A stretch of DNA of 39,390 nucleotides from Escherichia phage HF4s, in sequence record MT833387.1. One strand, given 5' to 3'. A program made the translations under genes and the position numbers. The notes below the pieces were generated by a model. It saw nothing but the letters and a program-made list of their open reading frames with translations, did not search any database and had not been told where the DNA came from. Below, piece after piece: positions 14 through 39,390 of the stretch (the stretch's first letter is position 1; each line of letters opens with the position of its first letter).

Positions 14-436
14 ATGGCGACTGAACCAAAAGCTGGTCGCCCCTCTGATTATATGCCGGAGGTGGCTGACGATATCTGCTCGTTGCTTTCTTCTGGCGAA
101 AGTTTGCTGAAAGTATGTAAGCGTCCTGGTATGCCGGATAAGTCCACTGTTTTCCGCTGGTTGGCAAAGCATGAGGATTTTCGCGACAAGTACGCGAAGG
201 CAACTGAGGCACGAGCTGATTCTATTTTCGAAGAGATATTCGAAATTGCTGACAATGCGATTCCAGATGCTGCTGAGGTGGCAAAGGCAAGACTTCGCGT
301 TGATACCCGCAAATGGGCGCTGGCCCGAATGAATCCCCGTAAGTATGGCGACAAGGTAACTAACGAGCTTGTCGGTAAGGACGGCGGCGCAATCCAGATT
401 GAAACATCACCGATGAGCACTCTATTCGGAAAATGA
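14..436 (+). CDS. terminase small subunit (Sf6 gp1 / P22 gp3 type)
   Basis: 140-aa ORF opening the morphogenesis block, 4-nt overlap with the large terminase; size and position match Sf6-type TerS. Confidence 0.85.
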   Translation: MATEPKAGRPSDYMPEVADDICSLLSSGESLLKVCKRPGMPDKSTVFRWLAKHEDFRDKYAKATEARADSIFEEIFEIADNAIPDAAEVAKARLRVDTRKWALARMNPRKYGDKVTNELVGKDGGAIQIETSPMSTLFGK

Positions 437-1847: not shown

Positions 1848-3973
1848 ATGGCAGAGACATTAGAGAAAAACATGAGCGGATCATGCTCAGGTTTGACCGC
1901 GCCTATTCTCCACAGAAGGAAGTGCGCGAAAAGTGCATTGAAGCTACGAGGTTTGCTCGTGTCCCCGGAGGTCAATGGGAAGGAGCAACGGCGGCTGGAA
2001 CTAAGCTTGATGAGCAGTTAGAGAAGTATCCTAAGTTTGAAATCAATAAGGTAGCAACTGAACTTAACCGCATCATTGCAGAATACCGCAATAACAGAAT
2101 CACTGTTAAGTTTCGTCCTGGTGACAGAGAGGCAAGCGAAGAGTTAGCCAATAAATTAAATGGTCTGTTCCGTGCTGACTACGAAGAAACTGATGGCGGT
2201 GAGGCTTGTGATAATGCATTTGACGACGCTGCTACTGGTGGTTTCGGTTGCTTCCGTTTGACGTCGATGCTGGTCAATGAATACGACCCCATGGACGATC
2301 GTCAGCGTATTGCTATTGAACCAATATACGACCCGTCGCGCTCTGTGTGGTTTGACCCTGACGCTAAGAAGTACGACAAATCTGACGCGTTGTGGGCGTT
2401 CTGCATGTATTCGTTGTCACCTGAAAAATATGAGGCTGAATACGGAAAGAAACCTCCTGCTTCTCTGGATGTAACGTCTATGACCAGTTGGGAATATGAC
2501 TGGTTTGATGAAGATGTTATTTACATAGCGAAGTATTACGAAGTTCGTAAAGAGTCTGTTGACGTCATCAGTTATCGACATCCAATCACTGGAGAGATTG
2601 CAACATACGACAGTGATCAGGTTGAAGATATTGAAGATGAACTGGCAATAGCTGGATTTCATGAAGTGGCAAGGCGCTCAGTGAAGCGCCGTCGTGTGTA
2701 TGTATCCGTAGTGGATGGTGATGGTTTCCTTGAGAAACCTCGACGTATTCCTGGTGAACATATCCCCCTCATCCCGGTTTATGGAAAACGCTGGTTCATT
2801 GATGACATTGAGCGTGTCGAAGGGCACATTGCAAAAGCAATGGATCCACAACGTTTGTACAACCTTCAGGTTTCAATGCTGGCTGATACTGCAGCGCAAG
2901 ACCCCGGTCAGATCCCTATAGTTGGCATGGAGCAAATTCGTGGACTTGAGAAGCACTGGGAGGCTCGCAACAAGAAACGCCCAGCGTTCTTGCCGTTGCG
3001 CGAAGTGAGAGATAAATCTGGCAACATTATCGCTGGAGCTACCCCTGCAGGATATACACAGCCTGCGGTTATGAATCAGGCATTGGCTGCATTACTACAG
3101 CAAACCAGTGCAGATATTCAGGAGGTTACAGGCGGCAGTCAGGCCATGCAGCAGATGCCAAGTAATATTGCTCAGGAAACGGTTAACAACTTGATGAACA
3201 GAGCAGATATGGCTTCGTTTATCTATCTGGACAATATGGCGAAAAGTCTTAAACGCGCTGGTGAAGTATGGCTGTCAATGGCGCGTGAAGTGTACGGTTC
3301 AGAACGTGAAGTGCGCATCGTTAACGAAGATGGAAGTGATGATATCGCTGTCCTGAGCGCACAGGTTGTTGACAGGCAAACAGGGGCTGTTGTTGCGTTA
3401 AATGACCTTTCTGTCGGTCGATACGATGTGACGGTTGATGTTGGACCAAGCTACACAGCACGACGTGATGCAACGGTTTCTGTACTGACAAATGTCCTTA
3501 GCTCTATGCTTCCAACAGACCCAATGCGCCCGGCAATTCAGGGTATTATTCTGGACAATATCGATGGCGAAGGCCTTGATGACTTCAAAGAGTACAACCG
3601 AAACCAACTGCTGATATCTGGTATTGCAAAACCACGCAATGAGAAAGAGAAGCAGATTGTTCAACAGGCGCAAATGGCAGCACAAAGCCAGCCAAATCCT
3701 GAAATGGTTCTCGCTCAGGCGCAAATGGTAGCAGCGCAGGCAGAAGCGCAAAAAGCAACTAACGAAACTGCTCAAACTCAAATCAAAGCATTTACTGCCC
3801 AGCAGGATGCGATGGAGAGTCAGGCAAACACTGTCTATAAACTGGCTCAAGCCAGAAACATCGATGACAAAGCAGTGATGGAGGCAATACGCCTTCTGAA
3901 AGATGTCGCCGAGTCACAACAACAGCAATTCCAGTCACCACCACAGTCACCGGCAGACTTAATGCCGAGTTAA
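1848..3973 (+). CDS. portal protein (P22 gp1 / Sf6 gp3 type), N-terminus disrupted by apparent frameshift
   Basis: Longest intact ORF is 1883..3973 (696 aa), with an N-terminal region aligning to P22 portal. An ATG at 1848 with MAETLEKN lies 3 nt after the terL stop in another frame; restoring one A in the A5 run 1866-1870 gives MAETLEKKHERIMLRFD, co-linear with the P22 portal N-terminus. Confidence 0.85.
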
Positions 3974-3986
3974 CCAGGAGTAATCA

Positions 3987-4870
3987 ATGGAAAACGAACT
4001 GATCATCGACGGTCAGGTTATTGACCTGTCTGAAACACAGGAAAATGCAGAAGAAACCATCATCCAAACAGAGTCACAGCCTGAGAATGAAAGCCAGGAT
4101 GACAACGGAAAAGAGATGGCAACTGATCCTGAAAAACCGAAGAGACACCAGAAGATTACGCCTTGCGTATTGGTGATGAAGAAATTCAGCTTAACGCTGA
4201 CGATGATGATCACATTGACGGGCAACCTGCACCGCAATGGGTGAAAGATCTTCGCAAAGGCTTCAAAGAAACACAGAAAGAAAACCGTGAGTTGCGCCGC
4301 CAGCTTGAGGAAGCATTAGCCAAGCCTGCGGAACATCAGCAACCACAACCAGACGCTATTCCACCAAAACCGACTCTTGAGTCGTGTGATTATGACGAAC
4401 AGGCGTTTGAACAGGCATTGACTGATTGGCATGAGAAAAAAGGCCGTGTCGAACAGCAGCAGCAACAAAAACTACGTCAGCAACAGGAATACCAACAGCG
4501 TTTCCAGCAAAGGGTAGAAGCGCATAAACAACGGGCAGCCAAACTTCCTGTGAAAGATTATCAGGAAATGGAGGCCATTGTTCTTAGTGAGCTACCACCA
4601 ATTCAGCAGGAAATCATCATTCACTGTGCAGACGAAGGCTCTGAACTACTCGCCTATGGCTTAGGTAAGAGCCAGCAATTACGCCAGCGTGTAGCCGCTG
4701 AGACAGATCCAATTCGCGCAGCATTCCTCTTGGGGCAGATTAGCAAACAGGTAAGCCTTGCTCCAAAACCAAAGAAAGCCATCAAGCCAGAGCCGGAAGT
4801 ACGTGGTGGCGGTGCTGATGCGAAACAAGACGAATTCAACAAATTATGCCCCGGCGCAAAAATCGAATAA
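3987..4870 (+). CDS. scaffolding protein (P22 gp8-like), split by apparent frameshift
   Basis: Two overlapping ORFs (3987..4244 and 4163..4870 with a TTG start) between portal and coat; acidic N-terminus and charged helical C-terminus typical of scaffold; frame change at the A5 run 4132-4136. Confidence 0.7.
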
Positions 4871-36939: not shown

Positions 36940-37263
36940 ATGAAGATGCCAGAAAAACATGACCTGTTAGCCGCCATTCTCGCGGCAAAGGAACAAGGCA
37001 TCGGGGCAATCCTTGCGTTTGCAATGGCGTACCTTCGCGGCAGATATAATGGCGGTGCGTTTACAAAAACAGTAATCGACGCAACGATGTGCGCCATTAT
37101 CGCCTGGTTCATTCGTGACCTTCTCGACTTCGCCGGACTAAGTAGCAATCTCGCTTATATAACTAGCGTGTTCATCGGCTACATCGGTACTGACTCGATT
37201 GGTTCGCTTATCAAACGCTTCGCTGCTAAAAAAGCCGGAGTAGAAGATGGTGGAAATCAATAA
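36940..37263 (+). CDS. S: holin, lambda S type with dual start
   Basis: 107 aa, essentially identical to lambda S ([22 protein letters not shown]...); upstream stem-loop as in lambda. Confidence 0.95.
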
Positions 37264-37723
37264 TCAACGTAAGGCGTTCCTCGATATGCTGGCGTGGTCA
37301 GAGGGAACTGATAACGGACGTCAGAAAACCAGAAATCATGGTTATGACGTCATTGTAGGCGGAGAGCTATTCACTGATTACTCCGATCATCCTCGCAAAC
37401 TTGTCACGCTAAACCCAAAACTCAAATCAACAGCAGCCGGGCGCTATCAGCTTCTTTCCCGTTGGTGGGATGCCTACCGCAAGCAACTTGGCCTGAAAGA
37501 CTTCTCTCCGAAAAGCCAGGACGCTGTGGCATTGCAGCAGATTAAAGAGCGTGGCGCTCTACCGATGATTGATCGCGGTGATATTCGTCAGGCAATCGAC
37601 CGTTGCAGCAATATATGGGCTTCACTTCCGGGGGCTGGTTATGGTCAGTTCGAGCATAAGGCTGACAGCCTGATTGCAAAATTCAAAGAAGCTGGCGGAA
37701 CAGTCAGAGAGATTGAGGTATGA
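37247..37723 (+). CDS. R: endolysin, lambda R-type lytic transglycosylase
   Basis: 158 aa, near-identical to lambda R. Confidence 0.95.
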
Positions 37724-38157
37724 GCAGAGTAACCGCGATTATCTCCGCTCTGGTTATCTGCATCATCGTCTGTCTGTCATGGGCTGTTAATCACTACCGT
37801 GATAACGCCATCGCCTACAAAGAACAGCGTGATAAGGCCGCATCCATAATCGCTGATATGCAGAAGCGTCAACGTGATGTAGCAGAACTTGACGCCAGAT
37901 ACACAAAGGAGCTTGCTGATGCTAACGCGACTATCGAAAGTCTCCGTGCTGATGTTTCTGCTGGGCGTAAGCGCCTGCAAGTCGCCGCCACCTGTGCAAA
38001 GTCAACGACCGGAGCCAGCGGCATGGGCGATGGAGAAAGCCCAAGACTTACAGCAGATGCTGAACTCAATTATTACCGTCTCCGAAGTGGAATCGACAAG
38101 ATAACCGCGCAGGTTAACTACCTGCAGGAATACATCAGGACGCAATGCCTTCGATGA
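37720..38157 (+). CDS. Rz: spanin inner-membrane subunit Rz
   Basis: 145 aa; N-terminal TM helix identical to lambda Rz, divergent coiled-coil periplasmic part. Confidence 0.9.
37919..38104 (+). CDS. Rz1: spanin outer-membrane lipoprotein Rz1, embedded in Rz (+1 frame)
   Basis: Embedded ORF with signal peptide ending in lipobox-like VSAC followed by a Pro-rich segment. Confidence 0.75.
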
Positions 38158-38331
38158 TAGCGATAATTTTACTCATCATCCTTCACATCTGGCTCTGTAG
38201 ACAGGGTGATGATCACTTCTGGAGTGAATCCAGATTAAACATCTCATTGCTGATGCTTGATATTGAGCATCTTGCGCGCGGTAAGGGGCTGCGTTGAGAT
38301 AAGAGCCAGTCATTACAAATACCAGGATTTA

Positions 38332-38355
38332 GCCTCGCATTCGCGGGGCTTTTTA
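38332..38355 (+). terminator. intrinsic terminator-like hairpin
   Basis: 7-bp stem GCCTCGC/GCGGGGC with ATTC loop followed by TTTTT. Confidence 0.5.
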
Positions 38356-38375
38356 TTGCAACAAAGGTAAAGACG

Positions 38376-38663
38376 ATGGATGAAGAATATCGTAAAGACC
38401 TGCAACTGTGGTTTGGTCTTACGCATGCGCCGTTCTGCGTGATGCCGCGAGTATTCATGGAGGCTATGCCGCCAGAATGGCAAGAGAAGATGGCTCAGTT
38501 GCTTTTTGAGTATAGCGACACAATCAAAACGGATGTCTGCGGAGTTCACAGCTGTTTTGTTACTGCCAAAGACAGCAACAACCGCTTTATGAGGATGCCA
38601 GAAGATATTCTGAACTATCGTCATCCCCGACGTGAATTCATCGAATCAGTTCTGAAGAAGTAG
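38376..38663 (+). CDS. hypothetical lambdoid protein downstream of the lysis cassette
   Basis: 95-aa ORF with upstream AAAGG RBS. Confidence 0.55.
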   Translation: MDEEYRKDLQLWFGLTHAPFCVMPRVFMEAMPPEWQEKMAQLLFEYSDTIKTDVCGVHSCFVTAKDSNNRFMRMPEDILNYRHPRREFIESVLKK

Positions 38664-38909
38664 CCATTACAAAGCCTATCTACTGGTGGGCTTGATAATG
38701 AAACCAGAATTTATTCTTGGCAACCAGTTACGGCAGTACAGCGAAACAACCCAAGCCAGTAAGTGGGGAAATAACACTGGCAGCCACTGAAAGATGAACC
38801 TCCTGCCTTATGGCAAAAAGATTCTTTGTGGTGGCGGACTGATGGAAAGACATCTGTTATTGCAGAGACCATTCAATGAGTGGTCTCGACAATGGCTTAT
38901 ACCCTGCAC

Positions 38910-38935
38910 GGGATATCTTAACTGATATCCCTTTT
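38910..38935 (+). terminator. intrinsic terminator-like hairpin
   Basis: Perfect 8-bp inverted repeat GGGATATC-ttaact-GATATCCC followed by TTTT. Confidence 0.5.
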
Positions 38936-38956
38936 AACGGATAAACGGAGCCAACA

Positions 38957-39199
38957 ATGGCAGAGATTATTCCCATGACTGAAGAACAGAAATTCCAGTT
39001 AGAGATTTACAAGCTGGTAATGAACCAGAACGCAGCCGCAGAGGAAGCATTTCAATTCATCGGCACTGACGAGCTGAAGCTTGAGTTATTCAAAATTCAC
39101 TTCCAGTCAGGCGGCGCTAATTCAGATATCACGACCCGCACAATCGAAGCGGTACGTAAATCGAAGGAAGCGTTAGACCTGTTCACTACCGGAGCATGA
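38957..39199 (+). CDS. hypothetical protein
   Basis: 80-aa ORF upstream of terS. Confidence 0.5.
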   Translation: MAEIIPMTEEQKFQLEIYKLVMNQNAAAEEAFQFIGTDELKLELFKIHFQSGGANSDITTRTIEAVRKSKEALDLFTTGA

Positions 39200-39200
39200 T

Positions 39201-39380
39201 GTGAGCCGCGTAATCAATTTGGGTAAGGAGAAGAAATTTCCAATTACTCAAGAGCTATACGAGCGGCTGGAAAGCGTCATTCATGATTACGATGGTGAAA
39301 TCAGTTTATGCGAGGCGATTGGCACACTCGAATTGCTGAAGCAGTCACTGATTGAAGGCGCGAAAGAGTCCTCAACCTGA
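39201..39380 (+). CDS. hypothetical small protein (GTG start)
   Basis: 59-aa ORF starting at a GTG preceded by GGAG, 1 nt after the previous stop; last gene before terS on the circular map. Confidence 0.4.
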   Translation: MSRVINLGKEKKFPITQELYERLESVIHDYDGEISLCEAIGTLELLKQSLIEGAKESST

Positions 39381-39390
39381 AATGACAATT

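Follow-up and report, generated by a model that had tools for sequence, protein, structure and literature searches.

Two small genes between the lysis cassette and the terminase genes of P22-like phages have been annotated for about two decades as conserved hypothetical genes: orf80 and orf59c in P22, hkbM and hkbN in HK620, and genes 67 and 68 in Sf6. In the annotations of BTP1, P22, HK620 and Kapi1 the region runs from lysis genes through variable genes to orf80, orf59c and terS. Searching the literature by locus tags and gene names returned nothing on either gene beyond statements of dispensability. A P22 prophage carrying an orf25-orf80 deletion gives viable phage (PMC11016777) and P22 with orf80 disrupted is viable (bioRxiv 10.1101/2023.08.15.553423); on these two sources, orf80 is reported to be dispensable for lytic growth and lysogeny of P22 in the laboratory. 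The published P22 deletions cover orf80, and none is reported for orf59c alone.

Two other genes of the interval provide useful comparisons. Like orf80 and orf59c, pid of P22 is a small, nonessential gene in the lysis-to-terS region. It is a moron located between orf25 and orf80, its insertion site is empty in PS34-type phages, and its product is host directed and derepresses dgo (Cenens et al. 2013, PMC3573128). It is encoded on the opposite strand and has a promoter and a Rho-independent terminator to itself, whereas orf80 and orf59c have neither. The second gene, dec of phage L and SPN9CC, encodes a virion head-decoration protein; it occupies the same docking position as orf59c, starting 2 to 3 nt after the stop codon of the orf80 homologue and before terS, and has no sequence relation to orf59c.

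The window analyzed here, the whole 39,390-nt stretch of Escherichia phage HF4s (MT833387.1), is a complete genome of a P22-like (Lederbergvirus) temperate phage, circularly permuted, with its opening placed 13 nt ahead of terS. The final 30 bases joined to the initial 40 match contiguous HK620/Kapi1 sequence with only 1 to 2 substitutions. The preliminary description had proposed an 80-amino-acid open reading frame (ORF) and a GTG-initiated 59-amino-acid ORF, separated by 1 nt and immediately upstream of terS. The two frames are borne out at 38957..39199 (plus strand, ATG start) and 39201..39380 (plus strand, GTG start). Their placement before terS holds across the joined ends of the window and not within its linear form: the next gene after orf59c, 23 nt away, is an Sf6-type small terminase gene at 14..436 on the plus strand (PF20901, E 7.5e-45; phrog_1482). 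Both genes share the strand of the lysis cassette (holin, endolysin, and Rz) and of terS, and lie directly between them.

The tight coupling proposed for the pair is also recovered. A single base, 39200, separates the TGA stop of orf80 from the start codon of orf59c (39201-39203), and the Shine-Dalgarno GGAG of orf59c at 39190-39193 falls within the last codons of orf80, giving the plus-strand junction GGAGCATGAtG (39190..39201). The Shine-Dalgarno of orf80, likewise GGAG, is at 38947..38950 on the plus strand, 6 nt before the ATG, so that GGAG stands 6 to 7 nt ahead of the start codon in both genes; that of orf80 is kept in relatives despite a differing upstream flank. The GTG start of orf59c is the one used in the P22 annotation, and it agrees with the aligned N termini of distant members of the family. 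A promoter scan found no promoter-like site before either gene, and a terminator scan found no terminator after orf59c.

By sequence comparison, the two ORFs are orthologues of P22 orf80, a member of Pfam family DUF2560, and of orf59c, a member of phrog_3546. Megablast of positions 38700-39390 retrieves 193 phage records at 80-99% identity, including Kapi1, HK620, Sf101, Sf6, BTP1, and P22, and the annotations under the matches read orf80, hkbM, or "DUF2560 family protein" for the first gene and orf59c or hkbN for the second. ORF80 matches DUF2560 (PF10834) at 147.7 bits (E 1.1e-43), against a gathering cutoff of 25 bits, with residues 5-76 covering profile positions 1-72 of 72; it matches phrog_571 as well, and nothing in this end-to-end agreement sets it apart from the family. 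Residues 1-59 of ORF59c align with positions 1-59 of 59 of phrog_3546 (E 4.4e-43), and no Pfam family match was found for it. Against P22, HK620, Sf6, and Kapi1 (Kapi1_044/045), ORF80 is 98.8-100% identical, with 100% for the HK620 and Sf6 proteins, and ORF59c is 91-98% identical; gene order, 1-nt spacing, GTG start, and position before terS are the same as in these four phages. The window differs from P22 and BTP1, which have rha and pid upstream, in lacking both, its pid site being empty as in PS34 and HK620, and from P22 in its Sf6-type rather than gp3-type terS. Both genes have thus already been catalogued.

Pairwise dN/dS between the window and its relatives is 0.03-0.17 for orf80 and 0.16-0.26 for orf59c. 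Comparison of orf80 with P22, BTP1, and HK620 gives 8-11 synonymous and 0-2 nonsynonymous changes, and dN/dS against a Serratia allele is 0.165; these pairwise values, taken against independently fetched phages, are unbiased, whereas a pooled orf80 value is biased by the choice of 80 IMG/VR loci for their ORF80 identity. Both have full-length profile matches and dN/dS values well under 1, which identifies orf80 and orf59c as true protein-coding genes kept by purifying selection, in agreement with the earlier proposal of two real small genes. For the orf59c family, an exhaustive profile search yields 189 representatives of 50%-identity clusters at E <= 1e-3, mostly of 53-67 amino acids, with the pattern M..NV..LGKEKKFP...EL..R....I.EY.G.(I/V)S.....G.LE..K..LI. 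A few very long proteins (2,149-5,253 amino acids) align through several short stretches apiece and are probably spurious matches to repeats. The phrog_3546 profile also matches all 56 of the distant relatives compared with it, and no match to orf59c was found on plasmids.

ORF80 (9.0 kDa, pI 4.72) and ORF59c (6.7 kDa, pI 4.81) are predicted to be small, acidic, soluble, helical proteins. The AF2 model of ORF80 contains four helices (residues 9-22, 26-35, 39-54, and 58-77; pLDDT 77, pTM 0.62), and that of ORF59c, of low confidence (pLDDT 64), has residues 1-13 disordered followed by two helices. No transmembrane segment or signal peptide was found in either, the maximum 19-residue hydropathy being 0.4-0.9. 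As both proteins are acidic, DNA binding is unlikely for either. PDB sequence and profile searches gave nothing significant for the two proteins, and NCBIfam and PADLOC searches nothing meaningful. Foldseek with the ORF80 model had no match at E <= 0.001 in PDB or BFVD, its best viral match being an uncharacterized protein at E 2.7e-3, and the low-confidence ORF59c model had no Foldseek match. Neither protein has an HNH motif or an HNH match in Pfam, in agreement with the preliminary description, which had seen no HNH signature, and the two families are unrelated, with no homology found between ORF80 and ORF59c.

Several more specific assignments were considered and set aside. In ORF59c, an extended N-terminal stretch containing KKFP precedes two helices, an arrangement reminiscent of FNLRWP in Arc that suggested a ribbon-helix-helix protein; this was rejected, as 0 of 56 family members have a Pfam ribbon-helix-helix match and hhalign gives a probability of 2.9% against P22 Arc and 0.2% against Mnt. 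A helix-turn-helix reading of AFQFIGTDELKLELFK in ORF80 was rejected because ORF80 is acidic, because the residue at the canonical Ala position is bulky, and because the abundant helix-turn-helix structures gave no fold match. A 24-residue match to JetB (E 0.011) was discounted.

The distribution of the two genes points to independence. A tblastn search recovers DUF2560 from 177 phage records and orf59c from 44. Of 80 IMG/VR viral contigs with 100%-identical ORF80, which were selected by that identity and are not independent samples, 17 carry orf59c; with the window and named phages included, the count is 23 of 90 loci. The end of orf80, ...ACCGGAGCA-TGA/TAA, is followed within 1 to 5 nt by the start of the next gene in nearly all 90 loci, the exceptions being the two most divergent alleles. 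What follows varies: in most loci terS itself starts 4 to 5 nt after the orf80 stop, with its Shine-Dalgarno inside orf80, and elsewhere the place of orf59c is taken by dec, phrog_1365, phrog_2423, a DUF1737 protein, or a 162-amino-acid gene. The gene docked there can also be a phrog_11049 domain fused in frame to orf59c, one locus (L062) carries both orf59c and dec, and loci of the L012 type look like a clean orf59c deletion or empty site, TGATG-CTCAACCTGAAA.

Distant relatives of orf59c occur in other settings altogether: within a DNA-polymerase/helicase/RNA-ligase module, among a series of small ORFs, immediately downstream of a P22-type portal gene, and, in a Providencia phage, between the helicase and Q genes of a nin-like region. 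These gene orders show orf80 and orf59c to be two independent modules and no obligate pair: orf80 is an anchor gene, conserved widely, where the head-gene block borders the lysis side, and orf59c belongs to a set of interchangeable cargo genes able to dock at its 3' end. In the sense of Cenens 2013, orf59c behaves as a moron in being present or absent between two genes that adjoin in related phages, orf80 and terS, and has no promoter and terminator of its own, being separated from orf80 by 1 nt and from terS by 23 nt. The wide conservation of orf80 across P22-like phages means that it is not moron-like in presence and absence.

These observations bear directly on the earlier suggestion that the genes form a toxin-antitoxin-like pair in which one protein neutralizes the other. 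Small size, adjacency, and translational coupling would suit such a pair, as would the rare in-frame orf80-orf59c fusion seen in one contig (P0024). The joint inheritance of a type II system is nevertheless not found, the genes mostly not co-occurring (177 versus 44 records and 17 of 80 loci, as above): orf80 lacks orf59c in about three quarters of loci, and orf59c relatives stand alone elsewhere. Nor was a toxin fold or an antitoxin DNA-binding domain found with Pfam, NCBIfam, PADLOC, PDB, or hhalign, the last including the negative Arc and Mnt comparisons of ORF59c. No promoter-like site precedes the pair, and P22 is reported to remain viable after deletion or disruption of orf80, including in constructs that have no functional orf80 but keep orf59c. 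We regard a toxin-antitoxin relationship as extremely improbable.

The relation to terS can be approached in the same way. Identical ORF80 is found beside four kinds of terS, namely PF20901 in this window, PF03592 (L041), PF16677 (L012), and a 146-amino-acid type without a Pfam match (L018). In Klebsiella phages and in prophages of Serratia and Shimwellia, homologues of DUF2560 (36-75% identity) again lie between the lysis genes and terS, among still other neighbor genes, and those of 36-44% identity have kept both length and position. Conserved residues of ORF80 include N25, F34, G36, and E43. Among Salmonella phage records, separate tallies give 92 with the P22-type portal and 91 with DUF2560, which, if the two sets of records largely overlap, suggests that most Salmonella phages with this portal carry DUF2560.

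A role as packaging accessory, in which ORF80 with or without ORF59c would assist terminase, modulate terS/terL, or set terS expression by coupling, would account for orf80 always bordering the head-gene block on its upstream side and for the usual start of terS 4 to 5 nt after the orf80 stop with its Shine-Dalgarno inside orf80. The corresponding position in HK97-like phages holds the HNH gene gp74, and gp74 of HK97 is needed for cos cleavage by terminase. Yet ORF80 shows no covariation with one terS/terL type, and a dedicated packaging partner is unlikely because identical ORF80 adjoins four different terS families, whose N-terminal domain types are unrelated. The acidity of both proteins, the reported normal growth and lysogenization of P22 without orf80, and the location of orf59c relatives in other phages, well away from packaging genes, likewise argue against it. 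The packaging-accessory pair considered possible in the preliminary description is not supported, and neither is a functional pair of another kind; a packaging role of any of these kinds seems unlikely.

The same geometry could be read as a property of the DNA rather than of the protein, with orf80 acting mainly as a recombination boundary and ribosome-delivery leader and its product being of minor importance. Mosaic joints fall at the orf80 start (about -17 nt), at codon 27/28 (HK97), and at the stop; similar Shine-Dalgarno-containing sequences (ACCGGAGC) lie on both flanks; and the 3' end of the gene supplies a Shine-Dalgarno to every downstream cargo gene. HK97-like phages illustrate the internal joint: they share window positions 38657-39038 at 93.8% identity, comprising spacer, hairpin, Shine-Dalgarno, and the first 27 orf80 codons, and then switch to gp74, leaving orf80 truncated. 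Such an adapter would not, however, explain the strong purifying selection on amino acids evident in the synonymous and nonsynonymous counts, nor homologues of 36-44% identity with the same length and position, and a mere leader would not keep a predicted four-helix protein across genera. We consider it quite unlikely that the DNA and translation signals are the main function of orf80.

On the other flank, the constant position of DUF2560 after the lysis cassette in P22-like, Klebsiella, Serratia, and Shimwellia phages could indicate a lysis accessory, the proteins tuning lysis timing or spanin/endolysin function. The predicted features do not fit, with no transmembrane segment or signal peptide and with hydropathy as low as stated above. 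Holin and endolysin types also vary among loci with similar ORF80, a variable cargo slot and a spacer of about 290 nt intervene between Rz and orf80, and orf80 is reported to be unneeded for lytic growth. Such a role is very unlikely.

The spacer just mentioned (38664..38956, plus strand) contains no conserved ORF and travels with orf80, showing 90-94% blastn identity with HK97, SPN9CC, and P22. An ORF of 27-43 amino acids within it was dropped as not conserved, with frameshifts at an A-run and truncations, and Rfam gave no match over 38300-39390. The hairpin noted at its downstream end, GGGATATC-TTAACT-GATATCCC at 38911-38932, consists of an 8-bp stem and a 6-nt loop and is followed by TTTT (38911..38936 in all, plus strand). 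Of the claim that it is terminator-like, the structure itself stands: the 66-nt segment with the hairpin folds better than shuffled sequences (z = -2.6, with 1 of 200 shuffles equal). Its terminator character finds no such support: the terminator scan did not call the hairpin, its T-run being only 4 T, and the stem is imperfect in most relatives. Among the loci compared, the perfect 8-bp stem is found in this window and one other locus only; at least 60 relatives carry GGGATAAC...GATATCCC, with an A.A mismatch in the stem, and single changes in either arm are uncompensated.

Homology to P22 breaks between window positions 38916 and 38943, that is, at the hairpin, and this is the site at which P22 and BTP1 carry the pid moron of about 630 bp, the site being empty in this window. 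The hairpin thus presents itself, from these comparisons, as a weak and imperfectly conserved element at a mosaic joint, and a terminator role is not supported. The P22 late operon is subject to antitermination by gp23. If the late operon of HF4s is organized as in P22, even a weak terminator at the hairpin would be read through; the antiterminator of the window is not of the Kapi1 Q type.

The genes immediately upstream place the pair in an accessory context. In the window, the slot between Rz and the spacer holds a 95-amino-acid cargo ORF (38376..38663, plus strand) that matches phrog_3527 over profile positions 139-230 of 233 and has no Pfam match. In relatives, the same slot holds rha, KilA-N with hkbL, a "transcriptional regulator", a Tad2-like gene, or an Acb2/Tad1-like gene. 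In Kapi1, the closest relative in this region, the gene directly upstream of the pair, Kapi1_043, is Tad2-like (PF11195, E 3.9e-26), and in a Serratia prophage (L094) an Acb2/Tad1-hairpin protein (PF24729, E 4e-19) is encoded between Rz and DUF2560. Kapi1_043 is reported to be the most highly expressed gene of Kapi1, and the orthologues of orf80 and orf59c, Kapi1_044 and Kapi1_045, are absent from the list of genes undetected by RNA-seq (PMC12922286).

Because Tad2-like, Acb2/Tad1-like, and pid genes are found there in relatives, the lysis-to-terS interval is an accessory and counter-defense hot spot, to which ORF80 and ORF59c are linked only by position. A variable accessory slot before the terminase had been proposed, and it is confirmed by the differing slot contents among relatives and by the interchangeable docked genes. 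The Tad2-like and Acb2/Tad1-hairpin products are small soluble phage proteins encoded just upstream of DUF2560; ORF80 and ORF59c match neither family, so that the likeness is positional, and Pfam and PADLOC searches matched neither protein to these or other known counter-defense families.

What the neighborhood says about a host- or defense-directed role is mixed. The Tad2-like, Acb2/Tad1-like, and pid genes in the neighboring slot of relatives speak for it only through guilt by location. Since dec can occupy the docking slot too, not all of the cargo there is host directed. The constant position of orf80, mostly coupled to terS, would also fit a role in the head-gene block, and the searches for PADLOC and anti-defense Pfam matches were negative.

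Taken as a whole, the locus is best explained, with moderate confidence on our part, by two independent accessory genes of a P22-like phage that may encode late binding proteins directed at the host or its defenses. By analogy with the P22 late operon, orf80 and orf59c would be transcribed as part of an antiterminated late transcript, and they would be translated by coupling. Each product, acting separately, could then serve as a small acidic binding or inhibitor protein against a component of the host or of an anti-phage defense late in infection. That ORF80 and ORF59c act on such a component, instead of serving packaging, lysis, or the structure of the virion, is something we infer only tentatively, and we would put it at slightly below an even chance. 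It could further be speculated, as a somewhat unlikely conjecture, that DUF2560 acts in P22-like and related lambdoid phages as a late counter-defense or host-takeover factor and phrog_3546 as a small mobile inhibitor that moves between the early and late modules of many phages, each neutralizing a specific immunity or housekeeping protein of the host.

DUF2560 emerges from this comparison as a strongly constrained, widely conserved family that is dispensable in the laboratory and serves as a docking point for interchangeable cargo. As such, orf80 and, to a lesser extent, orf59c are reasonable candidates for a counter-defense screen in a well-developed phage genetics system. Should they prove to be counter-defense factors, two families of phage "dark matter" would gain a function; if not, they would be ordinary conserved hypotheticals.

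A mosaic joint lies within orf80, the 80-aa DUF2560 gene of the window. Nucleotides 38657-39038 are 93.8% identical to positions 1199-1582 of the HK97 locus (L006), and the window and the HK97-like siphoviruses have in common the spacer upstream of orf80, its hairpin, the Shine-Dalgarno sequence and the first 27 codons of the gene. After codon 27, the HK97-like siphoviruses instead continue into the gene for the HNH endonuclease gp74, and it is this switch that constitutes the joint. Immediately 5' of orf80, some relatives carry a fragment of a Terminase_2-type small terminase (terS) gene (P22, L002, about 2270-2334; proteins P0002 and P0007), which shares 78% identity over 40 aa with the terS of L041 (4812-5339) and is sometimes in frame with orf80, resulting in gene calls of 126-129 aa. 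By eye, a ACCGGAGC-containing sequence is shared between the 3' end of orf80 and its 5' flank, and this may mark a recombination boundary.

The spacer itself contains a small ORF (38794-38925, + strand) that is probably not a gene. In P22, HK620, and HK97, the ORF encodes MNL(Q/L)PYGKKDSLWWRTDGKTSVIAE.IQ, of 27-28 aa; the copy in the window is frameshifted, with A5 and not A6, and in many relatives it is truncated or shifted. The Shine-Dalgarno sequence before it is weak, and orf25, annotated in the same stretch of P22, is not kept as an ORF in the window. The spacer also includes the empty site (38916-38943) of the pid moron of P22 and BTP1, where approximately 630 bp of P22, consisting of pid with its 5'UTR and its terminator, are missing. 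The same segment is missing from HK620 and, as previously reported, from PS34 (PMC3573128).

The variable slot between Rz and the spacer is occupied by different genes in different relatives. In the window, it holds a 95-aa ORF (38376-38663, + strand), preceded just 5' by a terminator-like, G+C-rich hairpin with a T-run (38331-38350). The encoded protein matches phrog_3527 at profile positions 139-230 of 233 only, and a Pfam search returned no match. Kapi1 (L098) has a Tad2-like gene instead (Kapi1_043, 2935-3456; PF11195, E 3.9e-26), which is unrelated to the 95-aa ORF (BLASTP E 1.0), and the Serratia prophage (L094) has an Acb2/Tad1 hairpin gene (3371-3652; PF24729, E 4e-19). Both lie directly 5' of the DUF2560 gene, and both belong to recognised counter-defence families.

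Exchange of neighbouring genes is also seen downstream. In L022, a 162-aa cargo gene (4245-4733) is docked 3' of orf80; its product gave no match in a Pfam search, and by eye its N-terminus, MTTIAWDGKTLASD, resembles an Ntn-hydrolase or proteasome-type start. The 59-aa phrog_3546 gene, orf59c, is found fused in frame to a 99-aa phrog_11049 domain, giving a protein of 158 aa (P0307; L097, 4001-4477), and as five cluster representatives carry this fusion, it is probably real. A 140-aa fusion of orf80 with orf59c (P0024) occurs on one contig only and fits a 1-nt deletion, and it may be a sequencing error.

Within the holin, endolysin, and Rz region (36940-38157), the holin and endolysin of Kapi1 are 100% identical to those of the window, whereas Rz is only 56% identical; nothing in the window matches the Q antiterminator of Kapi1. 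The window's portal protein is 99% identical to the Sf6 and N7 portals. The genome of HF4s is a fine-scale mosaic.
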